This document shows positions 2,470 through 42,448 of a DNA stretch of 52,844 nucleotides, in pieces (within the stretch, counting starts at the first letter, position 1; each line of letters starts with the position of its first letter). The notes beneath the pieces are model-generated. The model made no database searches. It saw only the letters and a program-made list of their open reading frames with translations, and was not told the DNA's origin. This stretch comes from an uncultured Campylobacter sp. Lineage in GTDB: Bacteria; Campylobacterota; Campylobacteria; Campylobacterales; Campylobacteraceae. The stretch is from assembly GCF_938017615.1 (NCBI RefSeq), contig NZ_CALIJA010000203.1:1-52844 (forward strand). Direction: 5' to 3'. Position numbers and translations under genes: made by a program.

Positions 2470-2963
2470 AGCTCTCGCTCGTAGGGCTTTTACCGCCACC
2501 GAGAGTAAAATTTTGGCTTTCTGCGGCGAGTGCGACCTAAATTAAACCTAGGAGCGTAAATTTAAAGAGTTTTAAAATGCGCTGCCTTGGATAAAATTTC
2601 AAGTGGTGTATATAAAATTTTAAGCGGTGCGGGCACTTGCGGTAGAGCGCTAAATTTAAGAGGCGTCGTCCACGGCGCCGTGCAAAACGGAAGCTTTGAT
2701 TGTTATCGTTTTGATCGGACGTAAATTTAAACAGCGCCGCAAAGTGTCGCGACGCGATAAATTTAAACGATCAACGCCTCTGCGCCCCTGCGGTTTTAAA
2801 ATTTTAGCGAGGTAAAAGTTTAAATTGCCCGAGCAATATAAAAAGCGCCGCCGCATCGACGCTAAGGCTTGAAATTTTGCCTACGTGCGCACGCACAGAT
2901 CGCGCGTTAAGGCGCTAAATTTTAAATAAAGCTTGAAAATTACTTTAAGATAAGAGGTTTGAG

Positions 2964-4169
2964 ATGTTTGACGAAATTCGTTTTTCAAAAATCGAGCGTT
3001 TGCCCAATTACGTTTTTGCCGAGGTCAATGCCATAAAAATGGCGGCGCGCAGAGCCGGCGAAGATATAATCGATTTTTCGATGGGCAATCCCGACGGCAG
3101 GACGCCGCAGCATATAATCGACAAGCTTTGCGAAAGCGCGCAAAAGGACAAGACGCACGGCTACTCCGTAAGCCAGGGCATCTACAAGCTGCGACTTGCC
3201 TGCGCGAATTGGTACAAGCGTAAATATGGCGTGATCTTGGATCCTGAAAGCGAGATCGTCGCCGTGATGGGCTCTAAAGAGGGCTTCGTGCATTTAACTA
3301 GCGCGATCGTAAATCCGGGCGATGTCGCAGTGGTGCCCGATCCTGCGTATCCGATACATACTCAAGCTTTCATCATCGCGGGCGGCAACGTCGTTAAAAT
3401 CCCGCTTGCCTATGATGAGAATTTAAATTTTAACGAGAATAAATTTTTCATCGATCTGCAAAAAACCTTCGACGAGAGCATTCCGCGCCCAAAATACGTC
3501 GTCGTAAATTTCCCGCACAACCCCACCACCGTCGTCGTGCAAAAGAGCTTTTACGAGCGGCTCGTGGCAATGGCGCGGCAGGAGCGGTTTTATATTATCA
3601 GCGATATCGCTTACGCAGAGATCGCTTTTGATGATTACAAAACGCCGTCCATTTTTGAGGTTCAGGGTGCGAAGGATGTCGCAGTCGAGGCGTACACGCT
3701 CTCTAAAAGCTACAATATGGCGGGCTGGCGCGTGGGTTTTGTTAGCGGTAACAAAAAGCTCGTCGCCGCGCTTAAAAAGATCAAATCTTGGTTTGATTAC
3801 GGTATGTTTACGCCGATACAAGTAGCCGCCACGATCGCGCTGGACGGGCCGCAAGAGTGCGTAGAGGAGATCCGCGCGAGCTATGAGAAGCGTAGGAATT
3901 TTTTGATCGATGCTTTTGCGGACGCGGGCTGGGTGATCGCTAAACCTAGCGCGTCGATGTTTGCGTGGGCGAAATTGCCGCCAGCGGCGGCTCATCTAAG
4001 AAGCATGGAGTTTTCCAAGCAGCTTCTTACCAAGGCGCGCGTCGCCGTAAGTCCCGGCGTGGGCTTTGGCGCGGCGGGAGACGATTATGTACGGATCGCT
4101 TTTATCGAAAACGAAAACAGGATCCGCCAGGCCGCTAGAAATATAAAAAAATATTTGAAAGAGATTTGA
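2964..4169 (+). CDS. PLP-dependent class I/II aminotransferase (Campylobacterota LL-diaminopimelate aminotransferase/AlaC-like)
   Basis: NFPHNPT, DIAY and SKSYNMAGWRVG (PLP lysine) motifs; directly upstream of hom. Confidence 0.9.
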   Translation: MFDEIRFSKIERLPNYVFAEVNAIKMAARRAGEDIIDFSMGNPDGRTPQHIIDKLCESAQKDKTHGYSVSQGIYKLRLACANWYKRKYGVILDPESEIVAVMGSKEGFVHLTSAIVNPGDVAVVPDPAYPIHTQAFIIAGGNVVKIPLAYDENLNFNENKFFIDLQKTFDESIPRPKYVVVNFPHNPTTVVVQKSFYERLVAMARQERFYIISDIAYAEIAFDDYKTPSIFEVQGAKDVAVEAYTLSKSYNMAGWRVGFVSGNKKLVAALKKIKSWFDYGMFTPIQVAATIALDGPQECVEEIRASYEKRRNFLIDAFADAGWVIAKPSASMFAWAKLPPAAAHLRSMEFSKQLLTKARVAVSPGVGFGAAGDDYVRIAFIENENRIRQAARNIKKYLKEI

Positions 4170-5437
4170 TGAAGGTAGCGATTTTAGGCGTCGGCACCGT
4201 AGGTAGCGAAGTTGCAAACATTTTGATCAAAAACAAAGACATCATCCTTGCGCGCGCGGGCGTTAGCATAGAGCCCGTAATCGGGCTCGTGCGCGATACG
4301 AGCAAAAAAAGAGGCGTGCAAATTCCGCTTAGCAGCGACGTGCAAAGTATCATCGAGCGCGATGACATCGACGTTTTTGTAGAGCTTATGGGCGGGGTAG
4401 AAAAACCCTATGAGATCGTAAGTGAAATTTTAAAGCGCAAAAAGGCGGTCGTCACCGCAAATAAGGCGCTTTTGGCTTATCATCGCTACAAGCTCCAGGC
4501 TTTGGCGGGCGATACGCCTTTTGGCTTTGAGGCGAGCGTAGCGGGCGGAATTCCGATCATCAAAACCCTGCGCGAGGGACTAAGCGCCAATCGTATCGAA
4601 AAAATAATCGGCATCGTAAACGGCACGAGCAACTTCATCCTTACGAATATGATGCAAAAAAATGAGAAATTTGAGGACGCGCTAAAGCGAGCTCAAGAGC
4701 TCGGATACGCCGAAGCCGATCCTAGCTTCGACATCGGCGGATTCGACGCGGCGCACAAGCTTTTGATTTTAGCTAGCATCGCATACGGCGTGCACGGAGA
4801 TCCGGAAGATATCCTAATCGAGGGGATCGAGGAGATCACGCAGGAGGATATATATTTCGCGCGCGAATTTGATTTCATAATCAAGCTGCTTGCGGTGGCT
4901 AAGCGCGCGTGCGACAACAAAGTCGAGCTGCGCGTCCATCCTGCGCTCATTTCAAAGGATCAAATGCTCTCAAAAGTCGATGGCGTAATGAACGGCGTGA
5001 GCATCTACGGAGACTGCGTCGGCGAGAGTATGTATTACGGCCCTGGCGCGGGCGGAAGCGCTACGGCAAGCGCGGTTATAAGCGATCTCATCGACATCGC
5101 GCGCGATAACAAAAACCCGATGCTCGGCTATAAAATTTTGCCTAGTGAAAATTTTATGCAAATTCTGCCAAGCGAGCAGATCCGCACGAAGTATTATTTC
5201 AGGCTACGCGTGCGCGATGAGAAGGGCGTGCTTGCGAAGCTTACGAACATTATGAGTTTAAACGATCTTTCGATCGACAGCTTTTTGCAAAAGCCGAAGC
5301 TCAAAACGGACGAGGAAGTGACGCTGTTTTTCACGACGCATACATGCTGCGAGAAGGACATAAAGCGCGCTATAAGCGTGATTAGCGGCGAAAATTTCAT
5401 CACGCAAAAGCCTTTTATGATCAGGATAGAAAGTTAG
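4169..5437 (+). CDS. hom: homoserine dehydrogenase with C-terminal ACT domain
   Basis: GVGTVG, VTANKA, FEASVAGGIPII, GYAEADP, GPGAGG motifs; ATG overlaps the upstream TGA. Confidence 0.95.
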   Translation: MKVAILGVGTVGSEVANILIKNKDIILARAGVSIEPVIGLVRDTSKKRGVQIPLSSDVQSIIERDDIDVFVELMGGVEKPYEIVSEILKRKKAVVTANKALLAYHRYKLQALAGDTPFGFEASVAGGIPIIKTLREGLSANRIEKIIGIVNGTSNFILTNMMQKNEKFEDALKRAQELGYAEADPSFDIGGFDAAHKLLILASIAYGVHGDPEDILIEGIEEITQEDIYFAREFDFIIKLLAVAKRACDNKVELRVHPALISKDQMLSKVDGVMNGVSIYGDCVGESMYYGPGAGGSATASAVISDLIDIARDNKNPMLGYKILPSENFMQILPSEQIRTKYYFRLRVRDEKGVLAKLTNIMSLNDLSIDSFLQKPKLKTDEEVTLFFTTHTCCEKDIKRAISVISGENFITQKPFMIRIES

Positions 5438-5438
5438 C

Positions 5439-5782
5439 TTGAGCTTAAAAGAATATCTTTTCGGCTTTGCCTGCGAGGACCGTGCGGCGGAATTTTTACG
5501 CGGCGAAGGGTTTGAAATTTTAAAGCGAAATTTCCGCTGCCGCTTCGGCGAGATCGACATCGTCGCGCGCAAAGACGGGATTTTGCACTTCGTAGAAGTA
5601 AAGTAAAGGCCACGAGCGGCGATTATGACGCCGCAGAGCGCGTGACGGGCGCTAAGATGGCTAAAATTTTAAAGGCGGCGGAATTTTATCTGATGAGCTG
5701 CGATACGGACGAGCCGTGGCAGATCGACGTCGTGGAAGTTTATCCAAAGCAGATAAAATTTATCGCCAACATATCTTTTTAA
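5439..5782 (+). pseudogene. yraN: YraN (UPF0102) family nuclease-like protein, frameshifted
   Basis: TTG start gives MSLKEYLFGFACEDRAAEFL...RNFRCRFGEIDIVARKDGILHFVEVK then TAA (5604-5606). Removing one AAGTA copy of the tandem AAGTA-AAGTA at 5596-5605 restores a 112-aa ORF ending ...WQIDVVEVYPKQIKFIANISF*. Confidence 0.9.
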
Positions 5783-5806
5783 ATTAGAATTTTTAAGATA
5801 ATGAAC

Positions 5807-5812
5807 TATAAT
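5807..5812 (+). promoter_or_regulatory. probable sigma70 -10 box of trxA
   Basis: TATAAT about 30 nt upstream of the trxA start, followed by an AAGGAG RBS. Confidence 0.55.
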
Positions 5813-5841
5813 CCGCGGAATTTTAACACAAGGAGAACATT

Positions 5842-6156
5842 ATGGGAAAGTATATAGAGCTTACTTCGGAGAATTTCGACGTTATTAAAGAGGGTGTCGC
5901 GCTAGTCGATTTTTGGGCACCTTGGTGCGGGCCGTGCCGTATGATCGCCCCGATCATCGAGGAGCTTGCGAACGATTACGAGGGCAAGGCTAAAATTTGC
6001 AAAGTAAATACCGACGAAGCGCAGGATCTTGCGGTGCAATTCGGCGTCCGCTCGATCCCTACGATTCTATTTTTCAAAGACGGCGAGCTAAAAGCTCAGC
6101 TCATCGGCGCGCAATCTAAGCAGATCATAGCCGACAAACTAAACTCGCTTCTGTAA
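5842..6156 (+). CDS. trxA: thioredoxin
   Basis: WCGPC active site, 104 aa. Confidence 0.97.
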   Translation: MGKYIELTSENFDVIKEGVALVDFWAPWCGPCRMIAPIIEELANDYEGKAKICKVNTDEAQDLAVQFGVRSIPTILFFKDGELKAQLIGAQSKQIIADKLNSLL

Positions 6157-6162
6157 ATTTCA

Positions 6163-6189
6163 AAAGGGCGGCTTTCGCCCTTTCTTCTT
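6163..6189 (+). terminator. hairpin/terminator after trxA
   Basis: AAAGGGCG-gcttt-CGCCCTTT followed by cttctt. Confidence 0.6.
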
Positions 6190-6266
6190 CCACTCATCGT
6201 TTTATTAACTAAATTCGTAAATTTAACGCTCGCGACTTTACTTAATAAAATAATTAAGGAGAAAAA

Positions 6267-7211
6267 ATGTTAGATTTAGCAATTATCGGCGGCGGTCCTG
6301 CGGGGCTAGCGGCGGGGCTTTATGCTACAAGAGGCGGTTTAAAGGACGTCGTGATGTTTGAGATGGGGATGCCCGGCGGGCAGATCACTTCAAGCTCCGA
6401 GATGGAAAACTACCCCGGCGTCGCCGCAGTAACCGACGGGATGAGCTTTATGGCGCCTTGGCAGGAGCAGTGCTTCCGCTTTGGCTTAAAGCATGAGATG
6501 GTGCGCGTGCTGCGCGTCGCAAAAGACGGCGACGGAAATTTTACGATCTATCTCGAGGGCGATCAAACACGACGCGCGCGTGCCGTTATCGTCGCTACGG
6601 GCTCTACTCCGCGCCGCGCGGGGATCGAGGGCGAGGATGAGTTTTTCGGTCGCGGCGTCAGTACCTGCGCGACCTGCGACGGGTTTTTTTACAAGGGCAA
6701 AGAGGTTGCCGTCCTCGGCGGCGGCGATACTGCGCTAGAAGAAGCGCTGTATCTAGCCAAAATCTGCTCCAAAGTCTATCTGATCCACCGCAGGGATGAA
6801 TTTCGCGCTGCGCCTTCGACCGTGCAAAAGGTGCGCGAAAGTGAGAATATCGAGCTCATCACAAACGCGCTCGTAGAACAGATCAAGGGCGATGCAAGCG
6901 GCGTAACGGGCGTCGTAGTCAAAGACAAAACAAGCGGCGCCGCGCGCGAACTGCAGCTGCCTGGGATCTTCGTATTCGTGGGGCTTGACGTGCGAAACGA
7001 GGTGCTAAAAGACGAAAGCGGTAAGTTCATCTGCGATGTCACGCCCGGCGGGCAGGTCGCGGTAAATTTAAAGATGCAAACAAGCGTACACGGGCTATTT
7101 GCAGCGGGCGATATGAGGCAGGATGCGCCTAAGCAGGTCGTTTGCGCGGCAGGTGACGGCGCGGTTGCTGCACTTAGCGCGATCGCGTATCTACAAGGAT
7201 ACGATAAATAA
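6267..7211 (+). CDS. trxB: thioredoxin-disulfide reductase
   Basis: [21 protein letters not shown] and FAAGD motifs. Confidence 0.97.
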
Positions 7212-7237
7212 ACCTATCTTCGGAGCAAAATTTCACG

Positions 7238-7386
7238 GCGCGGCATGCGAAATTGCTTCCGCCGCGCTTTTTAAATTTAAAAGCCCGCGTCAAATTTGAA
7301 TGAAATAATGAAATTTTGACGCAAGGCGGCTCAAATTTAAAATTTCGTCAAATTGAGCCGCAAAATAATGCTATCGTCTTTTGCGG
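7238..7386. repeat. cluster of tandem short inverted repeats between convergent genes
   Basis: GCGCGGC/GCCGCGC (7238-7267), GCGTCAAA/TTTGACGC (7287-7322), GCGGCTCAA/TTGAGCCGC (7326-7361), CCGCAAAA/TTTTGCGG (7358-7386), interleaved with AAATTT. Confidence 0.6.
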
Positions 7387-7431
7387 AAACGCTTCCGAGC
7401 CGAAACGTCTTTTAAAAATTCAGATAAAATT

Positions 7432-8211
7432 TTATTGTCTTTCGTAGAAAGTTGCAAGGGCGTCTTCCGCCGTTTTTCTATTATTAAATGCCGATCTTAT
7501 CTTAATAACATCATCAATTATATCTTTAGTCACTATAAATTTATCCGATAAACTTACGCTCTTATCGGCATTCACGATAAAATTTAATTCGATCGCAGCC
7601 TGTGGCGGCAGCTCTGCTGCCCTTCCAAGCTGTAGCCTTATTTGGCTAGGCGTTAGCTGCGAATAATAAGCGACGTCTTCTAATGAATCAATAATATTAC
7701 TCATATAAATCGCAGAAGTTTTTGGTTCACCATCCTTTAGTATTTCATCTTTTAATTTATCGTCGCAATCAACTGGCTTTTTTTGAAATGAGTAATCTAT
7801 TTTGCCTCTGTCTTTGAGCTCCTCTTGAAATTTCGTCTCATTTATTTTGCAATGTTCATTTGCCAATTTAAGTAAACGCTGTTGTTTATCATCAGATTTA
7901 TCTTTATAGAAAAGCACGGCACCTCTTAAAGACGTGTTTAGCATAGCCTCTTTATATTTTTTGTTAAAGGCATCTACATCGACCTTTACTTTCTCCATAT
8001 CCACGTCGCAGACCATCTTAACCGTCTTTAATCCGCCGTTTTCCTCTTTGCTCCACGTGATATTTTTGCAGATTTTCGAACCCTCGATCGCCGTACCGAT
8101 ATTCATCGATTTGAAATCCGGCAGGGTGTAGTTTTTCACAAGCCCCACATCGTCATCGCCGCATCCTGCAAAAATAAATGCCGCAAGCGCAGCACCTAAC
8201 GTATATTTCAT
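7432..8211 (-). CDS. hypothetical lipoprotein
   Basis: Start at 8211 with an AAAGGAG RBS; MKYTLGAALAAFIFAGC lipobox; no recognised domain. Confidence 0.75.
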   Translation of the reverse strand: MKYTLGAALAAFIFAGCGDDDVGLVKNYTLPDFKSMNIGTAIEGSKICKNITWSKEENGGLKTVKMVCDVDMEKVKVDVDAFNKKYKEAMLNTSLRGAVLFYKDKSDDKQQRLLKLANEHCKINETKFQEELKDRGKIDYSFQKKPVDCDDKLKDEILKDGEPKTSAIYMSNIIDSLEDVAYYSQLTPSQIRLQLGRAAELPPQAAIELNFIVNADKSVSLSDKFIVTKDIIDDVIKIRSAFNNRKTAEDALATFYERQ

Positions 8212-8352
8212 CTTCGCTCCTTTGAGATAAATTTTAAAAATAGTGCTACCCCCTCCCCGCTTAAACATGTATAAATTTAGAGCTGAAATTTGAGATAAAT
8301 TTAGGGAGCGTTAGAGATCGAGAATGCAAAAGTGAAATTTAATGAAAGAATT

Positions 8353-8450
8353 TGGCGAGAGAGGGAGGGAATCGAACCCCCCGGAAAACGGTCAACCGCC
8401 CTCCTATCGGATTTGAAGTCCGCAGACGCCACCAGGTCGCCATCCTCTCC
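8353..8450 (-). tRNA. selC: tRNA-Sec (anticodon UCA)
   Basis: Reverse complement is GGAGAGGATGGCGACCTGGTGGCGTCTGCGGACTTCAAATCCGATAGGAGGGCGGTTGACCGTTTTCCGGGGGGTTCGATTCCCTCCCTCTCTCGCCA: 98 nt, UCA anticodon, long variable arm, TTCGA loop, G73-CCA. Confidence 0.95.
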
Positions 8451-8460
8451 AAACGGCACA

Positions 8461-8468
8461 ATTATAGC
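8461..8468 (-). promoter_or_regulatory. probable -10 box of selC
   Basis: gcTATAAT on the minus strand 10 nt upstream of the tRNA 5' end. Confidence 0.55.
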
Positions 8469-8478
8469 GAGATAAAAT

Positions 8479-11289
8479 TTATTTAGCTTTAAAGAGGCTA
8501 AATTTTAAGCCCTTTCGGCTCATTATTAGCGATGGCAGGATTATGAGCGCGCCCAAAAGCAGCAGGCTCATTACCAGACATATTAACATCCCGAAGTAGA
8601 TCGTAGGCCAGAAATTGCTCATCATCATCACGCTGAATCCCAAAATGATCGCAAACGACGTATAATACATCGCGTATCCGATACTTGCGTGGCTCGCGCG
8701 GATTGCCGCGGCCTCGTCGCCCAGGCGCGCAAACTCGCGCTTGTAGCGATAGATATAGTGGATGACATCGTCCACGCCGATACCGATGCTAATCGCCGCT
8801 ATCGTAATACTCATGATATCCAGCGGAATGCCTGCAACCCCCATGATGCCGAAGCAGGCGCAAAGAGGGATTAAATTTACGACGATCGCGATAAGCGCGT
8901 ATGAAAACGAGCGAAAGATGATCACGAAAAGCACGAAAAGCACGAGCACGGTGATACCCAGGGTGTCTATCTGTGAGCTCATCAGGCTTTGAAGCATATT
9001 GTTATAAAGCACCATTATGCCGCTGATCTGCGCGCTTGCCTGCTCGCCCTCGAGCAAAGAATTTAGCCCGCTTTGCAGATCTTTTAGGAATTTTGCTCTG
9101 CGTAAGCGCGGATCGCTGTCTATCGTGCGGACGCTAAAGTGCGCCTCGTTCGCTTCGATATTCACAAAGGGCGAAAGCACCATCTCGCGGTAGTTTGCCG
9201 GCATTTCAGAGTAGATTAGAGCAAGGCTTAGATCGTCCAGATCGCGCCCCTGATTAATCTGCTTGCCGAGCTTTAAAAGCGATGCAAGTGAGCTTACGTT
9301 GCCGATAAACTCATGCCCCGTGACGTTTTTGTCCTTCAAAAAATCGTCTATCTTGCCGATGATACGCATCTTTTCGGAGGTGAACCAATACTGCGGCTTG
9401 TTTTCGTTGGCGGCGTATTCGGCTTCGAAATCGCCAAAATCGTCGCTCGCGGTGGAATTCTGCTCTAAATTTGCGGCGTGGGTTTGATCCGAATTTGCGG
9501 CTTCATTTGATTGTGCTGCCGCGACGGAGCTTTGCACGATAAAATTTTGATCATTTAAATTTTGCGCCGCGGCAACGGAACTTTGCGTCGTGGAATTTTC
9601 TGCAATAGAATTTTGCGTTGTGGCGGTAGAATTCTGAGCGACGGAATTCCGCACGATAAAATTTTGCCCTACGGGATTGGAATTTTCGCCGCTCTTAGAA
9701 TTCGCGCTGCCGCTCGCGGAATTTTTACTCTCGCTAGCGGCGGGATCTGCGCTGCTCACACTTTTAAATTTAACGACGATATCAAGCGGGATTGTTCCTC
9801 CGAGATTTGTGTCTATGACTTCCATACCTGCGCGGATGTCGGTGCTTTTTTTGAAGTAGCCGATGAAGCTATTTTCGACGCGCAACTGCGAGATGCCGTA
9901 CAGCCCAAAGATCACCGCTGCAGCGCATACGCCATAGACCGCGCCTCTGCTACGCAGTGCCGTTTCCGCGCACCAAAGCGTAAATTTAAAGTGCTGCTCG
10001 AAGCTACGATTATTGTGCGTGCGCCTTAGAAGCGACATAACCGCGCCGAATACTCCAAATGCCGTAACTAGCGAGATACTGATGCCTACGCTCATCATAA
10101 TTCCCAGAGAAATTACGGGTTTTATATCGCAAAAAATTAGCGACATAAAACCGATAACGGTAGTAAAGATTGCGAAAAAGCAGGGCATTGCGCGCTCGCG
10201 CAGCACTGCGTAAACGAGCTGGCGCTGCGAAAATGCGTGAAAGCGCGCGCTAAACTCGCGGTAGGCGACGATTAGGTGGATACAGACCGAAACCGTTATG
10301 ATGAGTTGAAGCGCTATGAAATTTGAGCTAATGACCGTGACCTCAAAGCTCAAAAATCCGAATAATCCCGCTGCGAGCACGACCGAATACGCGCAGATGA
10401 TGAGTGGCAGCAGGATAAATTTTGCCTGTCTAAAAAAGAGCCAAAAGCAAGCTAGCAGAAGCACCAAGGCGCCGAGTCCGTAGGTCGCCAGATCCGAGCG
10501 GACGTAGCCTACCATATCGTCTGCGATCATATTTAATCCGCCCAAAAATAGCCGATCGCCCGCAAATTCCTTCTCAAAGCCCGCGATCAGCGCGCGCAAA
10601 GCCACAATGTCGCGGTGATCCTTTTCGCGCAGCTCGTCGCGGTAGGATTTGAAATTTTGCTCCGCAACTTTAAGCGCGTCTTTAAGCTGTGAAATTTGGG
10701 CCCCCGAGCGGTTGCCCTCGTGCTCTGCTTGCTCTAGAGCGCTTTTAGCCCCGTCTCTTAGGTGTAAAAGCTCCTCGTAGCGGATCTGCGGCTTTAAATT
10801 TATTAAAATTGCGGTAGTGCGAAAATCGGCGCTTACTAAATTTGACGCGTAAAAGGGGCTTGTGGCAAACTCGCGCCTAGCCGCGGTTAAATTTACGTCC
10901 GCGTCGGTAAGAGTGGGTATGTGCTTAAGCAGCTCGCTCATACCGCCACCTTTGTTTAGCAAAAGCGGCACATTCGTGATGTCCGTGACGCTAGCGACGA
11001 AATCCAGCTTGGAAAAAGCTGCGTCCATCTGCGCTATTTTGCGGATCGTCTCGGGCGCTAAAAGATCGCCCGCGGGAGTGTATGCAAGCACCAAGAAATT
11101 CGGCGTTTCGTAGCGTTTGGATACTTCGCGCCAAATTTGAAGGTCTTTGTCATTATCTAGTAGAAGCGTCTGGCTCGAAGCGTCGATCTCGAGCTTTGTG
11201 GAGTAATATCCGAAAAAGAGCGCCAGCGCGGTAAACAGCGCGAGCGTGATTTTCGGAAACGCGACGATTAGGCGAAAAATTTTTTTCAA
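8479..11289 (-). CDS. MMPL/RND-family lipid transporter with a ~100-aa low-complexity periplasmic insertion
   Basis: Two TM repeats, GIGVDDVIH motif, downstream of mlaA-mlaC; N/S/Q/A-rich insertion at about 9445-9760. Confidence 0.88.
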   Translation of the reverse strand: MKKIFRLIVAFPKITLALFTALALFFGYYSTKLEIDASSQTLLLDNDKDLQIWREVSKRYETPNFLVLAYTPAGDLLAPETIRKIAQMDAAFSKLDFVASVTDITNVPLLLNKGGGMSELLKHIPTLTDADVNLTAARREFATSPFYASNLVSADFRTTAILINLKPQIRYEELLHLRDGAKSALEQAEHEGNRSGAQISQLKDALKVAEQNFKSYRDELREKDHRDIVALRALIAGFEKEFAGDRLFLGGLNMIADDMVGYVRSDLATYGLGALVLLLACFWLFFRQAKFILLPLIICAYSVVLAAGLFGFLSFEVTVISSNFIALQLIITVSVCIHLIVAYREFSARFHAFSQRQLVYAVLRERAMPCFFAIFTTVIGFMSLIFCDIKPVISLGIMMSVGISISLVTAFGVFGAVMSLLRRTHNNRSFEQHFKFTLWCAETALRSRGAVYGVCAAAVIFGLYGISQLRVENSFIGYFKKSTDIRAGMEVIDTNLGGTIPLDIVVKFKSVSSADPAASESKNSASGSANSKSGENSNPVGQNFIVRNSVAQNSTATTQNSIAENSTTQSSVAAAQNLNDQNFIVQSSVAAAQSNEAANSDQTHAANLEQNSTASDDFGDFEAEYAANENKPQYWFTSEKMRIIGKIDDFLKDKNVTGHEFIGNVSSLASLLKLGKQINQGRDLDDLSLALIYSEMPANYREMVLSPFVNIEANEAHFSVRTIDSDPRLRRAKFLKDLQSGLNSLLEGEQASAQISGIMVLYNNMLQSLMSSQIDTLGITVLVLFVLFVIIFRSFSYALIAIVVNLIPLCACFGIMGVAGIPLDIMSITIAAISIGIGVDDVIHYIYRYKREFARLGDEAAAIRASHASIGYAMYYTSFAIILGFSVMMMSNFWPTIYFGMLICLVMSLLLLGALIILPSLIMSRKGLKFSLFKAK

Positions 11290-11314
11290 ATACCGCTCTT
11301 TTAGGCGCGCTGTG

Positions 11315-11905
11315 CTATTCGCCGCTATTGATGACGGTGGAATTTAGCCGCTTTATGAGCTCGTCAAAGCCCAAGCTTTGCGTTACGTCGCCTAGCTGCG
11401 AGCGGTAGGTTTGAATTAGGCTGACGCCCACGATATCGACGTCGTAGATACGCCAATCAGAGCCGTTAGGATAAAATTTAAAATCTATGTCGTAATTTTT
11501 CTGCTCGCCGATGACCTGCGTTTTTAGCACGCGGCGCTTATCGCTCGGGCTTTGTTTGCTTAGCACCTTCATATCCTGATCGGTATAAAGCGAAAGTTTT
11601 TCGATAAAGGAGCGCTTAAGATGCGCTTCGAAAGCTTTGTTAAATTCCTCGATCTGCGCGGGGCTAAGGCTAGCGTAATGCTTGGCAAGGGAGAGCTTTG
11701 CCATCATCTTGTAATCGAAGTAGCCGTCAAAAAGCGCAAAGATTTTCGCGGGCTTTGCGTCTTTGGGCGCGCTGCTTCGCATAATATTTACGGCCTCGGC
11801 GACCTTTTGGCTCATCACCGGCTCGATATCCGCATCGCTAATAGCGTGCGCCGAAATCAAAAGCGCTCCGCAAAGCGCTAGAACTTTTAAAATTTTCATT
11901 TTCAT
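11315..11905 (-). CDS. mlaC: MlaC/Ttg2D periplasmic phospholipid-binding protein
   Basis: Signal peptide; FDYKMMAKLSL and WRIYDVDIVGVSLIQTYRSQ motifs. Confidence 0.88.
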   Translation of the reverse strand: MKMKILKVLALCGALLISAHAISDADIEPVMSQKVAEAVNIMRSSAPKDAKPAKIFALFDGYFDYKMMAKLSLAKHYASLSPAQIEEFNKAFEAHLKRSFIEKLSLYTDQDMKVLSKQSPSDKRRVLKTQVIGEQKNYDIDFKFYPNGSDWRIYDVDIVGVSLIQTYRSQLGDVTQSLGFDELIKRLNSTVINSGE

Positions 11906-12621
11906 TCCTTTATTAGTTTCTCGCGATTTTGCTCGTAAGCATCGCGTAAAAATGGATATAGATCCACTGCATCTTTGGTCATTTTTTCATAAAATTTCGG
12001 ATCGCGCGAGTAATCGTTAAATATTCTAAATCCATTGACGGAGTTTCGAACGGTGCCATCTTTAATATAGTTTATCGGATTTGAAAAATAATCTCCGACA
12101 AGCCCCGCTGTATCGCGCAGATTGCTTTGCCCCAAAATCGGCCAGACGATGTGAGAACCTGCCGGCACGCCCCAATATCCGAGCGTTTGCCCGAAATCCT
12201 CGTCGTGGCGCGGAATTCCGTAGTATTTGCCTGCCATATCATTAAGCCCGCCGAAGCCGACGGTCGAATTGATCAAAAATCGCTTCGTCTCGTCCCAAGA
12301 ATTTTCAAATTTACCCTGCAATAGGTTGTTTACGAGCCTCATCGGATATAAAATATTATAGAAAAAATTTGAAAACGCGCCCTGGATCGGATCGGGCATT
12401 ACGTAATCGTAGCCGCTGGCTACAGGGGTTAATATGTATGAGTAAAATACGTCGTTGAAGCTCGTCATAACGCGGTTATAGCCGCTAAGCGGATCGAAAA
12501 CCTCGCGCTTGGCAAACTCCTCGTCAAAACCATCCGTATCGCTAGGCGCTACGTCTTGCTTTTGCGAGCAACCGCAAAGTGCCAATGCCGCGGCTAAGAA
12601 TATAATTTTTATAAATTTCAA
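11902..12621 (-). CDS. mlaA: MlaA/VacJ outer-membrane lipoprotein
   Basis: LCGC lipobox; DPLSGYNR, RFLINSTVG, EDFGQTLG and YPFLRDAY motifs. Confidence 0.93.
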   Translation of the reverse strand: MKFIKIIFLAAALALCGCSQKQDVAPSDTDGFDEEFAKREVFDPLSGYNRVMTSFNDVFYSYILTPVASGYDYVMPDPIQGAFSNFFYNILYPMRLVNNLLQGKFENSWDETKRFLINSTVGFGGLNDMAGKYYGIPRHDEDFGQTLGYWGVPAGSHIVWPILGQSNLRDTAGLVGDYFSNPINYIKDGTVRNSVNGFRIFNDYSRDPKFYEKMTKDAVDLYPFLRDAYEQNREKLIKE

Positions 12622-12751
12622 ATTGTGACCCTTCTTTATAAATCAAAGTGGCGATTTTACAAGTTTAAAGAAATTTTGTCAATAAGGGTAAAATTTCATA
12701 TAGAATTTCCCTCTTTATATCGCAGAATAAAGCCTGCAGCTCTTTAAGAAA

Positions 12752-12768
12752 TATATCAGAGGATATAT
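12752..12768 (+). promoter_or_regulatory. putative ModE operator
   Basis: TATAT-cagagga-TATAT matches the TAYAT-N7-TAYAT ModE consensus, next to TAAAAT (12771-12776) upstream of modE. Confidence 0.6.
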
Positions 12769-12799
12769 TATAAAATCACGTGAAAGTAAATAAGAAAGG

Positions 12800-13594
12800 A
12801 TGAAAATGGACGCAAAATTTGCTTTGGAATTTCTGCTTGGCAACGAAGCATCGCTTCTAGCCAAGCACATTAAGCTGCTTAAGGCCGTAGATGAGACTAA
12901 AAGTATTACAAAGGCCGCAGAGATCGTAGGAGTGTCGTATAAAAACGGCTGGGACGCGCTAAATTTAATCAACAACGCGAGCAAAAAACCTCTCATCGTT
13001 CGCACTCAAGGCACCAAGAAAAATAGCGGCTCCGAGCTTACCCCTTACGCTCACAAGCTGATTCGCGCTTATGATGCTATCAGCCACGCGGGCGAGACGT
13101 TTTTGAGTGAAATTTTAAAGCTTGACGAGATCACCGAAGAGAGCCTTCTAAGCTTAGAGAAGATCGGTATGAAGCTTTCTGCGCGCAATCAGCTAAGTGT
13201 TGAGATTACGGATGTTCAAACAGGCGCTGTAAATTCTCAAATCACGGCTAAACTCGCAGGTGGCGAAATTTTATGCGCGACGGTAACCGTAGAGAGCGAA
13301 AAGAATTTAGGGCTGAAGGCTGGCAAGGACGTGCTGTTTTTATTCAAAGCTCCAAGCGTCATCATCGCTAAAGGAAGCTCGGAGAAGCTAAAACTTAGCA
13401 CGACGAATCAAATCAAAGGCACGATTAGCGAGGTCAAAATCGGCGCAGTAAACGCAGAGATCTGTCTAGGCACGAGCTCGCATCAAAACATCACCGCGAT
13501 CATCACGCGAGAATCTGCCACCGCGATGGCTCTAGGAGTAGGAGATGAAGTAACGGCGATCATCGAGCCTAGCGAGATCATTATTGGCGCGTAA
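12800..13594 (+). CDS. modE: molybdate-responsive transcriptional regulator ModE (HTH plus two TOBE/Mop domains)
   Basis: SITKAAEIVGVSYKNGWD HTH; SARNQL and STTNQIKG Mop repeats. Confidence 0.9.
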   Translation: MKMDAKFALEFLLGNEASLLAKHIKLLKAVDETKSITKAAEIVGVSYKNGWDALNLINNASKKPLIVRTQGTKKNSGSELTPYAHKLIRAYDAISHAGETFLSEILKLDEITEESLLSLEKIGMKLSARNQLSVEITDVQTGAVNSQITAKLAGGEILCATVTVESEKNLGLKAGKDVLFLFKAPSVIIAKGSSEKLKLSTTNQIKGTISEVKIGAVNAEICLGTSSHQNITAIITRESATAMALGVGDEVTAIIEPSEIIIGA

Positions 13595-13695
13595 TAGGGT
13601 GAAATTGGGTGCACAAAATTTTAAAATTTAAGGCGTAAATTTAAAATTTTAGATACAATTCAATTCTCGGCGAGAGCCGAAACGAAAGGCATAAA

Positions 13696-17370: not shown

Positions 17371-17421
17371 ATCGGCTTTAAAACGAAATTTGCTAAAATC
17401 CCGCAAAATTTGGAATTTGGC

Positions 17422-25339: not shown

Positions 25340-25360
25340 TTTTGAAATTTTGCCTGCATT

Positions 25361-25391
25361 AAATTTTACCGCGGCCCTGCGGTAAAATTTT
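25361..25391 (+). terminator. hairpin after carA built from two AAATTT sites
   Basis: Perfect 12-bp inverted repeat AAATTTTACCGC / GCGGTAAAATTT (25361-25372 / 25379-25390). Confidence 0.6.
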
Positions 25392-35088: not shown

Positions 35089-36147
35089 ATGCCAAAATTC
35101 CAAATTACACTGCTTTTCGATCTGGACGGCACGCTCATAGACTCCACGCCCGCGATACTGGACGGCTTTCGCTACGCGTTTGCGCATTTGGGCGCTACAG
35201 AGCCTAGCGACGAAGCGATTAAAAGGCTTATCGGGCATCCGTTAGAAGTGATGTTTGAACGTCTAGGTGTGACGCGTGATGTGCAGAATTTCGTGCTCGC
35301 CTACAAACAGCGATACGCGCAGATATTTTTGGATCAGACCGTTCTGCTAAGTGGTGCGTTCGAGGCGGTTCGTGCGGCGAGCGAGTTTGCAAATTTAGGC
35401 GTCGTGACGACCAAGACGTCGAAATTTTCTAAAATTTTATTGCAGCATCTGGGTATCGCGGAATTTTTCGGCACCATCGTCGGGCGAGAGGACGTAAAAT
35501 ATCCCAAACCAAGCGCCGGACCGATCTTAAAAGCGCTCGAAAATTTAGGAATTTGCGGCGCGACCGCTAGCCAAAGCCCGCATGCTGCTTGCGGTAAAAC
35601 TTACGACGCGACTGATGATGAAAATACAAGCGCTGCTAGCAGGAGCGCGATTTTGAGTGAAATTTCAGTGCCTGATTTAAAGAGCCTTTCTGCGCTTGAT
35701 CCTGATCCTAGCAAAGTTTGCGAGCAAAATTTAAGCAGCATCGCGAGTCAAAATTCTGATAGAATTTCGTTTAAAGATTTAAGCGAAGTAAAGAGCGATA
35801 GACATGAGGCTGGTGATAAGAGCCAAAAGAACGGTATCGGCATCGAGGGCGAGAGCTATAAAAGCGGAGCGCGCGGCGGTAAAATTTATGATGCACATGA
35901 GCTAAATTCCACTCCTTGTTATGACAAAATTTGCAGTGACGAAATTCTGCCTTCTGTAAGCCAAAATATCTTTATGATCGGCGATACGTCGCTTGACGCC
36001 ATCGCGGCAAAGTCGGCAGCGGTGCGAAGCGTGGGCGTAAGCTGCGGTTACGGCAGTGCCTCGGAGCTACGGGCGCATTTCGAGTTCGTATGCGCGGACG
36101 CAAAAGAGGCGGTTGAGCTGATACGCGAAATTTCATCAAAATTTTAG
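35089..36147 (+). CDS. HAD-superfamily phosphatase (Gph/PpaX-like) with a ~135-aa insertion
   Basis: FDLDGTLIDS, VVTTK, KP and MIGDTSLD motifs; long low-complexity segment between motifs III and IV. Confidence 0.85.
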   Translation: MPKFQITLLFDLDGTLIDSTPAILDGFRYAFAHLGATEPSDEAIKRLIGHPLEVMFERLGVTRDVQNFVLAYKQRYAQIFLDQTVLLSGAFEAVRAASEFANLGVVTTKTSKFSKILLQHLGIAEFFGTIVGREDVKYPKPSAGPILKALENLGICGATASQSPHAACGKTYDATDDENTSAASRSAILSEISVPDLKSLSALDPDPSKVCEQNLSSIASQNSDRISFKDLSEVKSDRHEAGDKSQKNGIGIEGESYKSGARGGKIYDAHELNSTPCYDKICSDEILPSVSQNIFMIGDTSLDAIAAKSAAVRSVGVSCGYGSASELRAHFEFVCADAKEAVELIREISSKF

Positions 36148-37075
36148 GTGCAATAAAGCGAATTTTTTCTAGCTTCAATGCGCTATTTTTGCAAATACTT
36201 AGAAGTGAACCCGCGCCCGAAATTTAAAATTTCTAATTAATTTTTGAGTTTTAAATAGCACGCGATATGAATTTGCTCGTGCTATTTAGCTGGAAAGCAA
36301 GGCGCTTTCTAGGTGTTCAAATGTGATACGCGAAGTTAAATTTCGCATATTTCTGCTCTGGTCTAGCAAAATAACCTGTGCCATATTAACGATATATGAG
36401 AGATTTCACTTTGTTCGTCGTGCTTGATTTGATTCGTCGAATGTTTGGTATTAACACAGTATATGGGAAAAATTCCGTCGCAGTCAAATTTTATGCAATT
36501 TTACAATGTCTTTTGAGCCTGCAAAGGGTTTTTACAAGAAATTTTATGCAAGTTTCGCGCTCAAATTTTGGCTTTGATTTTAGTTTATGCTCCACCTTAT
36601 CGTGATAAATTCTATGTTCCGCTTGAGGTGAGTATTTGGTAGGACTTTTGTGCGATCCTATCGCAAGTCTATTTGACGCTTATTTTGGGCACCGTATTCG
36701 GGTTTTGTCGCAATTATGTTTGCTGCGGATTTTCGGTTTGATTTATAGCATTTAAGGTCGCGCCCGCGCCCAGCGAGCACTAAACATATATGTTTTGAAG
36801 ACAGGCTTATTATATGCTAAAATTTCATCCTGCGACAAATAGCTCGCAAAGGCGTAAATATAGGATAAACTAGCCAAATTTTAAAATTTAGCTCCGCGAT
36901 GATAGCCATATTCTTTTATCGAAGCCTATGAAAGCAGCGTTAGCTTTTGCGTTTGAATTTTATCGTTTCGGCGCAGCAGGGCTTTAAATTTAATCTAAAA
37001 TTTTGCAAAATTTTAAAATTCCGCCCGCTCTTATGCTTTTTTAAAGCAAAATTCTATAAAATACCGCTTCCGCAA

Positions 37076-37149
37076 TGGGCTATCGTCTAATGGCAGGACA
37101 ACAAACTCTGGATTTGTGAATATAGGTTCGACCCCTATTAGCCCATCCA
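37076..37149 (+). tRNA. tRNA-Gln (anticodon CUG)
   Basis: TGGGCTA/TAGCCCA acceptor stem, ACAAA-CTCTGGA-TTTGT anticodon arm (CTG at 37108-37110), GTTCGA T-loop, encoded CCA. Confidence 0.93.
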
Positions 37150-37314
37150 CTTAAATTTTTAATCCCCTTTATCATAGCTAGCGTTTGAAATTAATTTGCG
37201 CGTCATTTTTGCAGATCGTGGCAGCATTCGCCGGCTAAGGCAAATTGCGCCAAGCCATAAATACGCAAAATTTTAGCGAGCTAATAAGTAAGTTTGCCGC
37301 TTTAAAGCGGCGGA

Positions 37315-39198: not shown

Positions 39199-39269
39199 AA
39201 ATTTCATCCGTTTAAAAATTATCTTCAACTCATTTGGCTATAATTGCCGTTTTAAATTTAAGGATAGCT

Positions 39270-40325: not shown

Positions 40326-40456
40326 GCTGCGGTAAAAGTCGCGCCTTAAAGAATTTTTGACGAATGTGGGCTTTTAAGCGCGCACGTATATGCGAGTAAA
40401 TTTTTATGTTTACCGCTCGCAAACGTCGCAAAAAGATAAAAATTTAAGAAGGCGAA

Positions 40457-40798
40457 ATGAATAAAATTTTTATACTTGTGCTGTTATGTCTCGGCGCATA
40501 CGGTTGCGATCCCGCCGATCCGGTGCCGAATTTTATGGAGTTTAATGACAAAGATAACGACGGCGCACTGAGCTTGCAGGAGTGGACGGCGAGCGAGGTG
40601 CCGTCTGGGCTGAGAGTAAAGCTAAGTCTGCGCTCAGGCTCTGAATTTAAGAGGCTCGATGCTAATCGTGACGGCAAGGTTAGCCTTGATGAGCTGGGAG
40701 CGAAACCGTCTGCAAAGATTTATTGGTCCGAAGATCCGTGCGCTTTTTGGCCTTGGCCGGACGGATCCGAGGACAAAAATCAATCCGCCGTCAAATAA
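40457..40798 (+). CDS. exported two-EF-hand calcium-binding protein
   Basis: Signal peptide (MNKIFILVLLCLGAYG|C); canonical 12-residue loops DKDNDGALSLQE and DANRDGKVSLDE. Confidence 0.8.
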   Translation: MNKIFILVLLCLGAYGCDPADPVPNFMEFNDKDNDGALSLQEWTASEVPSGLRVKLSLRSGSEFKRLDANRDGKVSLDELGAKPSAKIYWSEDPCAFWPWPDGSEDKNQSAVK

Positions 40799-40985
40799 GG
40801 CGCATAAAACGGCAATGATGCGGCCTCTTGCGCGGGGTTTAGTTTGTGCGATGCGTATAAATTTTGCTTCGCTCAAGCGAGTATGAACCAGTTTTGCTTC
40901 GCGGTCTGCGTAAAATTTATTTCGAGCACAACTAGCGTCTGCATGATCGCTCGCACCGTGATGTGGCTAAATTTAAAGGAAAAGA

Positions 40986-41906
40986 ATGAGTATAGTTTTT
41001 ATGGGTACGCCCGAGTATGCGGCTAAAATTTTACGCGCGCTTGCGGGGGCGAAATTTAATATCGCGGCCGTCTTTACGCAGCCTGATAAGCCCGCCGGTA
41101 GGAAACAAATTTTAACTCCGAGCGAGGTTAAAGTTTACGCGCAGCAGTATCTGCCCGCCGTGCCGATCTTTCAGCCTGCGACACTCAAAGACGAGGCGGT
41201 TGCGGCGCAGATAAAAGAGCTAAAACCCGATTTTATCGTGGTTGCCGCATACGGTAAAATTTTGCCGCAAAGCGTGCTTGATATCGCTCCTTGCATAAAC
41301 CTGCACGCTTCGATCCTGCCTAAATACCGCGGCGCAAGCCCGATCCAAAGCGCGATCTTGGCGGGCGAGAAGCAGACGGGCGTGACGGCGATGCTGATGG
41401 ATGCGGGGCTTGACACGGGCGATATTCTTGATTTTGCCTACACGCCTTGCGAGGATAAAACGGCGGAGCAGCTGTTTGACGAGCTAGGCGATCTAGCGGG
41501 CGAGCTGATCGTGCGAGTGTTACGAAATTTTACAAATTTGACGCCGCTAAAGCAAGAGGGCGCGCAGGCTACGCACTGCAAAAAGATAAGCAAATCTGAC
41601 GGGCTTTTTAGCTTTGAGGAAAGCGCACGGCAGATTTATAATAAATTTCGCGCGCTAACGCCCTGGCCGGGGATTTATCTAGCTAGCGGGTTAAAAATTT
41701 TAGAACTAGAGCTTTTGCGCGAATCTTGCGGGCGTAAATTTCAGCGCGCGAGCGAAATTCTACACGTTGATAAGCCCAGTTTTTGCGTTTCTTGCAGCGA
41801 GGGCGCGGTTAAGATCATAAAGGTGCAAGAGCCCGGCAAAAAGCCGGTGGACGCTAGCGCGTATCTAAACGGCAAGCGGCTAAAGATCGGCGACCTGCTA
41901 TGCTAA
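40986..41906 (+). CDS. fmt: methionyl-tRNA formyltransferase
   Basis: VFMGTP, TQPDKP, VAAYG and NLHASILPKYRGASPI motifs. Confidence 0.96.
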   Translation: MSIVFMGTPEYAAKILRALAGAKFNIAAVFTQPDKPAGRKQILTPSEVKVYAQQYLPAVPIFQPATLKDEAVAAQIKELKPDFIVVAAYGKILPQSVLDIAPCINLHASILPKYRGASPIQSAILAGEKQTGVTAMLMDAGLDTGDILDFAYTPCEDKTAEQLFDELGDLAGELIVRVLRNFTNLTPLKQEGAQATHCKKISKSDGLFSFEESARQIYNKFRALTPWPGIYLASGLKILELELLRESCGRKFQRASEILHVDKPSFCVSCSEGAVKIIKVQEPGKKPVDASAYLNGKRLKIGDLLC

Positions 41907-42448
41907 GCGGGATTTTAAATTCTCGCGTTTTGTGCCACGCTTTTGATGCTATGCTGGGATTTTATTTGCGCCGCGCTTTTGGCGTCGCGGCGAAATTCTG
42001 CCTTGGGTATCGCCGCGATCGTGAAGTAAAATTTTACTGTGCGGAATTTCGAAGCGAAGCTCCAAAATCAAGGCTTTATAAAATTCTAAAACCTCGCTTC
42101 TATACTTTAAAATTTTACGCTCGCAGGAGCTTTAAATTTCGCTTTGGCAGTTGCGAACCTTGCGGCGTCGCACCGAACACACACCGCTTAAAATTCTATG
42201 ATCGTGCCACAGAATTTTTGCGAGATAAAGCTTTAAAATTTTATCGAAATACCGCTGGGAAAATCCGCATTGCCGAAGAATTTAGCAAGAGCGTAAAATT
42301 CCATCGCACAAAATTTCACTATGTCGTAAAATTTAATCATGCTAAATTTTATCTTGTCTCAAAATTCTATCACTACGCGGAATTTAAACGCTTGCAATAT
42401 TTCAAGGCGAGCCCTTCACCTTACGCAAGGAGCGGGTTTTGCAAGTAG
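41900..42448 (+). other. RAATTY-array ORF (182 aa, KF/EF-repeat-rich) bridging fmt and birA; coding status uncertain
   Basis: Overlaps the fmt stop and the birA start; 15 of 17 RAATTY sites between 41917 and 42385 fall in its frame as K-F or E-F codons. Confidence 0.45.

Follow-up and report, generated by a model that had tools for sequence, protein, structure and literature searches.

RAATTY is a genome-wide, conserved word in an uncultured Campylobacter sp. of 47% GC and a probable methylase-marked self-word

The 52,844-bp stretch of DNA analysed here (the window) is positions 1-52844 of contig C203 in the 2.157-Mb draft genome (214 contigs, 47.4% GC) of an uncultured Campylobacter sp., hereafter G000, and it is crowded with the palindromic hexamer RAATTY (AAATTT, GAATTT/AAATTC and GAATTC). 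A reading made from the letters of the window without database searches (the sequence-only reading) had described this crowding as local arrays; the enrichment is real, but it belongs to the genome as a whole. The window holds 545 RAATTY sites against a mean of 188.3 (sd 11.8, maximum 222) in 100 dinucleotide shuffles, none of which reached 545, and its mean density of 10.3 per kb compares with 9.9 per kb for all of G000, where sites are spread evenly (39.2 ± 9.6 per 4-kb window). AAATTT is the commonest hexamer of G000 (14,338 sites, one per 150 bp), with an observed/expected ratio (O/E) of 20.0 when base composition sets the expectation and 4.18 when an order-2 Markov model does; the order-2 O/E of RAATTY as a class is 3.5, and the top 8-, 10- and 12-mers of the genome all contain AAATTT. 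The local "arrays" are a genome-wide self-mark seen locally and not special repeat elements. With moderate confidence we favour the reading that RAATTY, above all AAATTT, is a self-word kept throughout the genome by a methylase mark and a sequence-specific reader, probably one serving DNA uptake.

The excess extends from spacers into genes. Under a crude mask of open reading frames (ORFs) of at least 120 aa, which covers 79% of G000, coding DNA held 7.4 RAATTY per kb and the remainder 18.7. AAATTT was distributed almost evenly over the three codon phases (2,457, 3,101 and 2,705 copies), and 1,730 ORFs contained 8,287 copies, compared with 2,542 ± 30 after synonymous codons were shuffled within each gene and 1,443 ± 31 after the codon order was shuffled. 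Thus, both codon choice and amino-acid order are bent by the pressure for the word. Of all stop codons, 19% have a copy lying across them. Intergenic densities were nearly the same for spacers between tandem (20.2 per kb), divergent (20.3 per kb) and convergent genes (21.3 per kb).

The pressure is specific to the RAATTY set. Under the order-2 model the O/E in G000 was 4.18 for AAATTT, 2.77 for GAATTT/AAATTC and 2.09 for GAATTC, while the seven other NAATTN classes fell between 0.14 and 0.58; 83% of all AATT tetramers stood in a RAATTY context, and AAATTT led the 64 palindromic hexamers, followed by GAATTC. A codon-aware null applied within genes gave 3.25, 1.66 and 1.03 for the same three classes and 0.20-0.73 for the remaining NAATTN words; the split thus kept its direction, with GAATTC not enriched in genes. 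Tracts of A6/T6 were not enriched (1.05 under the synonymous shuffle and 0.31 under order-2), and controls of the same composition as AAATTT remained below the degree seen for RAATTY (TTTAAA, 1.67; AATATT, 0.64; ATATAT, 1.08). In its flanks AAATTT weakly favoured T at -2 and A/T at -1, and context returned to background beyond ±4 bases; AAATTT is a bare hexamer and not the core of a longer repeat. A hidden longer motif was rejected, as the context logos and the top 8-, 10- and 12-mers yielded only the hexamer and overlapping pairs of it such as AAATTTTAAAAT, and no extended asymmetric motif of about 9-12 bp, of the kind found in DNA uptake sequences (DUS) and uptake signal sequences (USS), appeared in the G000 context logos. 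Several other palindromes are strongly depleted in G000 under order-2 (GTCGAC, 0.13; TGGCCA, 0.13; CAATTG, 0.14; CGGCCG, 0.19), and the depletion of palindromes such as GTCGAC may reflect restriction avoidance.

Copies of RAATTY are conserved approximately threefold better than neighbouring bases, in coding and non-coding DNA alike. Over 340 kb aligned between G000 and a 95%-identical relative (G092), non-coding divergence was 3.07% inside RAATTY and 2.33% inside AAATTT, compared with 8.08% at other A/T bases and 9.07% at G/C bases; the controls gave 5.6% for other all-A/T hexamers, 4.0% for TTTAAA and 6.5% for non-RAATTY NAATTN words. Coding divergence was 2.29% inside the word and 5.9-6.0% outside it, and in four spacers of the window that are described below the corresponding values were 3.0% and 10.5%.

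Only three RAATTY-poor islands were present in G000. The large one is a prophage (C101:1-25000), a single island with 2.4 sites per kb versus 9.9 genome-wide, which encodes a terminase large subunit, an SU10-type portal, a DUF1064 protein and a 1,737-aa protein with a PBECR2 nuclease domain. A report on C. fetus describes the same under-representation of RAATTY in prophages of that species (PMC13436318). The other two low islands hold prs, rplY and an acetyl-CoA hydrolase gene, and an ORF of 2,003 aa without family, respectively; the latter lies on the minus strand of contig C202 (1042-7053), in a stretch with 3.5 RAATTY per kb, and had no Pfam match at 1e-6.

G000 encodes three D12-class methylases, of 373 aa (contig C1), 271 aa (C178) and 230 aa (C153), of which the first is the candidate for the enzyme that marks the word.

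G000 contig C1, 2397-3515: gene for the 373-aa D12-class methylase (PF02086), between trpGD and a PRAI-containing ORF

Among the trp genes that surround it, nothing with a nuclease domain was detected. Full-length relatives at 49-97% identity were present in every sampled genome of the Campylobacter genera g1 (the genus of G000), g14 (C. jejuni-like), g15, g16, g17 and g18, while g19-g22, the other genera of the family, gave matches of only ~30% identity or none. Identity was 96-97% in uncultured Campylobacter sp. metagenome-assembled genomes, 67% in C. concisus and 50% in C. jejuni. The C. jejuni relative (50-51% identical) stands directly after thrS-infC, a position that we take to be that of Cj0208/ctsM. 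Genes for ComEC and DprA, both widespread, are also present in G000. Judged by its sequence, the 373-aa protein is probably a conserved orphan D12-class methylase of the CtsM type; the RAATTY enzyme of C. jejuni is itself described as a D12-class methylase (PMC4294202), and an orphan RAATTY methylase has been reported from Spirochaeta (PMC4752239). No EcoRI-type methylase (PF13651) was found in G000 or in five relatives (G087, G057, G034, G061 and G046).

Among close relatives the enzyme occurs in two allele classes. Identity to the G000 methylase is 95-97% in G088, G009 and G092 and 69% in G014, although the mod-region DNA of G014 is 94% identical; G052, whose closeness to G000 was judged by word counts and genome size alone, has an enzyme 68% identical. 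This distribution suggests allele replacement by recombination. Downstream of the methylase gene on contig C1 lies an ORF of at least 504 aa (L005:3-1514, minus strand) that matches PRA isomerase (trpF) only at residues 225-305 and may be another gene enlarged by extra segments. The 271-aa methylase gene (C178:19085-19900; L001:1417-2232) adjoins a DUF5675 gene.

The distribution of the excess among relatives follows that of the methylase in large part. For these comparisons RAATTY O/E was computed under order-2 from samples of 2.6-80 kb per genome, while AAATTT/TTTAAA ratios and GAATTC counts are whole-genome values. RAATTY O/E was 1.6-3.5 in g1, 3.1-3.9 in g16, 1.8-1.9 in g15 and 1.9-2.5 in g17, compared with 1.17-1.55 in g14, 0.70-0.91 in g18 and 0.6-1.2 in all sampled genomes without the methylase. 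The AAATTT/TTTAAA ratio gave a similar order: 1.2-3.6 in g1, ~2-2.8 in g16, 1.7 in g15 and mostly 1.3-2.3 in g17, then ~1 in g14, 0.4-0.8 in g18, at most 1 in g19-g22 and at most ~1.3 in other families of the order. Across g1 the density stays at 7-14 per kb while GC content ranges from 28.5% to 47.4%, and GC-matched relatives outside the group (46.7-48% GC) have 1.1-1.4 RAATTY per kb versus 9.9 in G000. Thus, among the six methylase-carrying genera five show an excess, and no sampled genome without the enzyme does; this association is not a statistical test, because the genomes are kin.

Within g17, two genomes (G087 and G057) favour a different member of the set. They contain 4,463 and 3,712 copies of GAATTC, respectively, versus 103 and 102 of CTTAAG, and few of AAATTT, the order-2 O/E of which was 0.70 in a 40-kb sample of G087; in the same sample RAATTY reached 35 per kb in non-coding DNA but 1.5 per kb in coding DNA. 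The GAATTC copies of G087 form dense intergenic runs of a longer word, TCTAGAATTCC, with up to 12 GAATTC in 240 bp at spacings of 8-44 bp (mostly 8-21), and some runs end right before a ribosome-binding site. Examples, all in L062 (G087:C1:100001-120000), are:

7679-7920: run of TCTAGAATTCC
55-169: run of TCTAGAATTCC
12862-13014: run of TCTAGAATTCC

An altered methylase was rejected as the cause, since the G087/G057 enzyme differs at only one of 115 columns that are invariant in ten sequences of the RAATTY group. Because GAATTC belongs to RAATTY, G000 and this lineage may share one mark and differ in its reader. Taken with the absence of an excess in g18, this lineage indicates that accumulation must be directed by something besides the methylase, namely a reader of the word, and it speaks both against a purely physical cause common to the family and against the methylase alone deciding.

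The window itself carries, by profile matches and in an order shared with relatives, rsmI, rlmB, dapL, hom, trxAB, an MMPL transporter gene, mlaAC, the mod operon, a GGDEF/EAL protein gene, hisZ, purA, carA, addBA, rplM-rpsI, a HAD phosphatase gene, rplU, obg, fmt, birA, parAB, the atp operon and tolQR; the order from rsmI to parB is kept in G092 (94.6% nucleotide identity, 46.3% GC) and in G035 (40.7% GC). Four non-coding spacers had been singled out by the sequence-only reading as RAATTY arrays:

2470-2963, unstranded: spacer upstream of the LL-diaminopimelate aminotransferase gene; 10 RAATTY sites, all AAATTT, 20.2 per kb
15691-16680, unstranded: 990-bp spacer between modC and modB; 31 RAATTY sites, 31.3 per kb
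25340-26147, unstranded: spacer from carA to a response-regulator gene; 16 RAATTY sites, 19.8 per kb
36148-37075, unstranded: spacer downstream of the HAD gene, up to the tRNA gene at 37076-37146; 18.0 RAATTY per kb, measured over 36148-37314

That description did not hold. Three of the four spacers (18-20 per kb) match the intergenic mean of the genome (20-21 per kb), and only the modC-modB spacer (31 per kb), together with an ORF bridging fmt and birA (31 per kb) and in-frame inserts in AddB (25 per kb) and MMPL (43 per kb), exceeds it. Tandem Repeats Finder (TRF) detected no arrays in the claimed regions beyond two to three copies of 5-13 bp units, and a tandem-array or minisatellite identity was rejected on that basis, with the MMPL insert as a partial exception. 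Searches of the genome by blastn with the four spacers and the MMPL insert returned only self-matches and matches of at most 40 bp, by which an origin as mobile repeats, of the kind of miniature inverted-repeat transposable elements (MITE), repetitive extragenic palindromes (REP) or Rickettsia palindromic elements (RPE), was rejected. The first spacer, single-copy in the genome, is 85% identical to its counterpart in G092 with 49 gap columns and nine of ten sites conserved; the modC-modB spacer is ~10 bp long in G035 but kept in G092 and G014, while G088 lacks 182 bp of it; and the carA spacer, which has a ~700-bp counterpart in G035, conserves 16 of 16 sites in G092 at 88% overall identity.

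Neither spacing nor position singled out a regulatory use of the spacer copies. A periodicity of 15-21 bp had been proposed, and it does obtain inside the MMPL insert, where the sites at 9593-9719 are spaced 15, 21, 15, 15, 21, 18 and 21 bp as a consequence of degenerate units of 5-7 residues (..QNS../..QNF..), but across the non-coding DNA of the genome the peaks were weak (8, 13-15, 23-25, 32-33, 42-45 and 52 bp; maximum 2.65-fold), and coding DNA showed a 3-bp rhythm only. Helical phasing in non-coding pair distances was likewise weak, with the strongest period at 12 bp rather than 10.5 bp (6 times the mean power, a value not judged against shuffles). Terminator-like hairpins, claimed as another preferred context, numbered 35 in positions 1-20000 versus 34.7 ± 5.5 in shuffles, with no bias towards convergent spacers, and promoter-like sites numbered 30 versus 25.8 ± 5.2. 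Because spacer densities were equal whatever the orientation of the flanking genes and terminator-like sites stood at shuffle level, the word is tied to neither promoters nor terminators, and a role in either was rejected. The non-coding RNA candidates found with Rfam at the gathering threshold were limited to the tRNA at 37076-37146 and a tRNA-Sec at 8357-8449 (minus strand), the latter adjoining the MMPL gene.

The lineage to which the window belongs has also gained in-frame segments in three unrelated conserved proteins and an ORF between fmt and birA, all of which the sequence-only reading had pointed out:

8479-11289, minus strand: gene for an MMPL/HAE3-family transporter, 936 aa (NCBIfam TIGR00921, TIGR03480, TIGR00833)
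9466-9699, minus strand: in-frame insert in MMPL, aa 531-608; 234 bp with 10 RAATTY sites, 42.7 per kb (flanks 5-9)
27150-30062, plus strand: addB-like gene, 970 aa (NCBIfam TIGR03623, TIGR02786)
28164-28607, plus strand: in-frame insert in AddB, aa 339-486; 11 RAATTY sites, 24.8 per kb (flanks ~10)
35089-36147, plus strand: gene for a HAD-family phosphatase, 352 aa, with family models matching aa 7-156 only
35554-35946, plus strand: in-frame insert in HAD, aa 156-286; 7 RAATTY sites, 17.8 per kb
41900-42448, plus strand: bridging ORF, 182 aa, overlapping the end of fmt and the start of birA; 17 RAATTY sites, 31 per kb

The three insertions are real and lineage-specific, as seen in the alignment with G035 and, for MMPL and HAD, in surveys of the genus. 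The MMPL insert is absent from G035; of the genomes surveyed, 19 gave full-length matches with ORFs of 916-968 aa that were always open, and three others had ORFs of 813-815 aa without approximately residues 511-613. The AddB insert, with peptide motifs that include QNL, GNF, ENS and QNF, did not align in G035, the sole comparison. The HAD insert was present in 34 of 46 genus genomes (those of the 2.0-2.4 Mb clade, at 70-95% identity), one of the 34 with a TAG inside, whereas ten of the 46 had ORFs of 214-257 aa without it and the gene was fragmentary in two. Their claimed richness in RAATTY applies to MMPL and AddB and not to HAD, whose insert barely exceeds the N-terminal part of the same gene in density (15.1 per kb). 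As extra, weakly constrained peptide segments lodged in frame inside unrelated conserved proteins, the inserts resemble Rickettsia palindromic elements; they differ from these and other small mobile repeats in that, apart from the hexamer, no sequence family unites the inserts and spacers or links them to other parts of the genome; hence they are not copies of an element.

The bridging ORF likewise proved real and lineage-specific. In G035, fmt and birA overlap with no ORF between them, whereas the ORF was matched in 33 of 46 genomes and was full length in 29, at 68-90% identity and 173-202 aa, with no stop in any row. Its peptide, which has no Pfam or NCBIfam family match, is rich in KF and EF, the in-frame translations of AAATTT and GAATTT. 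The ratio of nonsynonymous to synonymous divergence (dN/dS) against five relatives was 0.47-0.87, compared with 0.12-0.19 for fmt and 0.14-0.21 for birA, and its dS (0.06-0.18) was below that of fmt (0.19-0.35) in five of five comparisons and below that of birA (0.11-0.23) in four of five, as expected if the DNA word is conserved. From these sequence data we infer that the ORF is an insertion of spacer-like DNA, almost unconstrained in sequence but held open in frame, the lack of stops being what points to selection for openness; our guess is that it is kept open for translational coupling of birA to fmt. A second ORF absent from G035 lies at 40457-40798 between obg and fmt (113 aa, EF-hand match, 88% identical in G092). 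Gaps of at least 300 bp under the crude ORF mask make up 11% of 455 kb of G092 versus ~2% in G035 and G045, so the clade of G092 and the window has gained much weakly constrained DNA.

The reading that we favour starts from what was observed directly, namely the excess, its specificity, the conservation of sites, their scarcity in the prophage, the spread among relatives and the lineage-specific insertions, and would connect them as follows. An orphan D12-class methylase would mark RAATTY by adenine methylation, and a sequence-specific reader, most likely acting in DNA uptake by analogy with C. jejuni, would favour DNA that bears the word. Copies would arise and persist at every place where other constraints permit, as with the uptake sequences of Neisseria and Pasteurellaceae, and density would for that reason track freedom from constraint (~7 per kb in genes, ~20 per kb between them and 25-43 per kb in certain stretches under the weakest constraint). 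DNA gained by the clade, by whatever route, would fill with the word, and segments lodged in genes or operons would survive only if open, since a stop or frameshift would deprive the protein of everything downstream or, in the bridging ORF, would uncouple birA from fmt if the two are coupled as supposed.

Several observations weigh against this reading. GAATTC shows no enrichment inside G000 genes under the codon-aware null (1.03), so the three RAATTY classes are not treated alike, and low divergence inside the word would also be expected from mere mutational stability. Relatives of the methylase at ~50% identity occur in Akkermansia, Treponema and other phyla as well, and specificity is therefore not fixed by identity to the C. 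jejuni enzyme. Genus g18 carries an ortholog (49-52% identity) with no excess of the word, the C. jejuni-like g14, home of the established mechanism, has only a slight one, and the two g17 genomes enrich GAATTC and not AAATTT despite an almost unchanged methylase. Finally, one methylated site reportedly suffices for uptake in C. jejuni, which would make the favouring of approximately one site per 100 bp puzzling.

The sequence-only reading had supposed that RAATTY units multiply by tandem duplication or slippage, building spacers and protein segments while molecular drive keeps the motif, a model that we consider unlikely. Its clearest case is the MMPL insert, in which a 29-nt unit recurs at 9521 and 9638 (86% identical, 117 bp apart) and the two halves resemble each other with z = 7.2 against shuffles, a clear internal duplication. 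Lengths also vary among relatives as such growth would have it (MMPL ORFs from 916 to 968 aa in 19 relatives, always in frame; the bridging ORF from 173 to 202 aa); RAATTY is carried by four of the 12 indels of at least 5 bp between the window and G092, and seven of 11 indels of 30-48 bp between G000 and G092 carry two to three sites each. When flanks were read by eye, a 12-bp indel at 15763 was a clear tandem copy and an 18-bp indel at 2618 shared only its last 7 bases with the flank. Of 92 recent indels of 6-40 bp, however, only six were tandem-like, two of these with RAATTY, and 21 of the 92 carried the word at all. The half-versus-half comparison gave z of at most 2.1 in six of eight segments, with no internal duplication detected in the AddB insert (z = 0.0), and 4.0 in the modC-modB spacer, under a null that errs on the lenient side, as the hexamer does not survive dinucleotide shuffling. 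TRF found no longer arrays, three of the four spacers have ordinary intergenic density, and duplication cannot account for an equal excess inside ordinary genes in all codon phases. Local tandem duplication was thus not borne out as a general source and is clear only in the MMPL insert, whereas the other half of the earlier interpretation, an uptake signal, fared better, in that the signal is tied to RAATTY itself and behaves like a maintained self-mark.

Three further explanations would dispense with uptake. In one, to which we give a small chance, the word has a physical or architectural role: AATT tracts, with their narrow minor groove and lack of flexible pyrimidine-purine steps, would bend DNA or bind a nucleoid protein, and the methylase would share the word by chance. 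Every non-RAATTY NAATTN has a pyrimidine-purine step beside AATT, so the same split is predicted; the gradient AAATTT > GAATTT > GAATTC follows A/T-tract length; and AAATTT far outnumbers TTTAAA (14,338 versus 5,519 sites), an A-tract followed by a T-tract being bent and the reverse order straight, a classic result. The weak non-coding spacing peaks and the g18 genomes, with methylase but no excess, are also compatible with such a role. Against it, the canonical A6/T6 tract is not enriched, the periodic signal is faint and closest to 12 bp, the excess is confined to methylase-carrying genera, the prophage in the same cell lacks it, and the sister lineage enriches GAATTC within a longer word, with AAATTT at 0.70 there. 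Mutational equilibrium, by which RAATTY, perhaps when methylated, mutates more slowly or arises more often and piles up with neither selection nor uptake bias, strikes us as distinctly improbable. It draws on a divergence 2.6-3.6 times lower inside the word, close to the 3.5-fold order-2 excess, and on the presence of that excess in all codon phases and in coding and non-coding DNA; it sits badly with g18, where the methylase brings no excess, and with the depletion of AAATTT in the GAATTC lineage, where the methylase is nearly unchanged, and to our knowledge adenine methylation has no protective effect against mutation. AAATTT is moreover 5.7 times more frequent than after codon-order shuffling, so that protein sequence is reshaped too, which implies a pressure overriding amino-acid constraints. 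We find it very improbable that the excess is an artefact of composition, produced by A/T-rich islands in a genome of 47% GC. The composition of G000 is indeed patchy, with CGCCGC, GCGCGC and similar GC-only hexamers 8-9 times over base-composition expectation, and in the Markov comparison the excess under order-2 and order-3 gives way to an O/E of 1.05 for AAATTT under order-4; however, the order-4 model already contains the enriched pentamers and says little, the excess persists under order-2, order-3, dinucleotide-shuffle and codon-aware nulls, and none of the same-composition words reaches the degree of RAATTY.

Returning to a self-word read in uptake, the closest parallels are with known signals of this kind. 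DUS of Neisseria and USS of Pasteurellaceae are 9-12 bp long, asymmetric and present at roughly one per kb, versus ~10 per kb for RAATTY in G000. They share with RAATTY a genome-wide excess of a short word, copies better conserved than their surroundings, scarcity in acquired DNA (here one prophage island) and presence in genes and spacers alike, but the G000 word is a 6-bp palindrome, its recognition is presumed to depend on methylation, and the association with terminators, where DUS and USS form inverted pairs, was not seen either in the terminator-like sites of positions 1-20000 or in the spacer densities of any orientation. The C. jejuni CtsM system uses the same word, which is very frequent in both organisms: according to one account, import into C. 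jejuni is restricted to DNA that CtsM has methylated at RAATTY (PMC10046745), and another gives 27,514 RAATTY strand-sites for strain IA3902 (PMC4294202). G000 shares with it a D12-class methylase 50-51% identical, with no adjacent nuclease domain seen, and ComEC and DprA; the order-2 excess differs (1.17-1.55 in the C. jejuni-like genus versus 3.5 at 47% GC), and in G000 the three RAATTY classes are unequally enriched. HIP1, the palindrome GCGATCGC of cyanobacteria, is likewise a short palindrome, an outstanding genome word and the target of an orphan methylase, and AAATTT in G000 is, as HIP1 is in its hosts, the most abundant palindrome of its length in genes and spacers; HIP1 has been tied to transformation efficiency in a methylation-dependent manner (bioRxiv 10.1101/2024.09.10.611283). 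It differs in being 8 bp long and GC-rich, in belonging to another phylum, with no homology of the enzymes claimed, and in that a sister lineage within Campylobacter favours a different word.

A more far-reaching version of the favoured reading, which we put forward tentatively, is that lineage-specific, reader-defined self-words within the RAATTY set (AAATTT here, TCTAGAATTCC runs in the sister lineage) act as a species barcode for uptake. Drive would hold the word at ~10 per kb while GC content rises from 28% to 47%, rewrite codon and dipeptide usage, and fill new DNA, among it junk segments that are translated and an almost neutral ORF kept open only for ribosomes to reach birA. The RAATTY mechanism and the high frequency of the word in C. 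jejuni are already in print. We found no description of a strong, RAATTY-specific and site-conserved excess in GC-richer Campylobacter other than C. jejuni and C. fetus, although the founding paper may remark on over-representation, nor any of the GAATTC lineage or of translated, nearly neutral segments.

The genome of C. jejuni is so A/T-rich that an excess of the word is hard to see (1.2-1.55-fold in g14), whereas at 47% GC it stands out 3.5- to 20-fold. Excess, site conservation and prophage scarcity are together the evolutionary trace that an uptake signal should leave, and on that reading the mechanism of C. jejuni would reach oral, GC-richer Campylobacter as well, with g18, G087 and G057 as natural contrasts for finding the reader of the mark. 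A six-letter pressure at the level of DNA can shape protein sequence and sit in translated, almost unconstrained segments.

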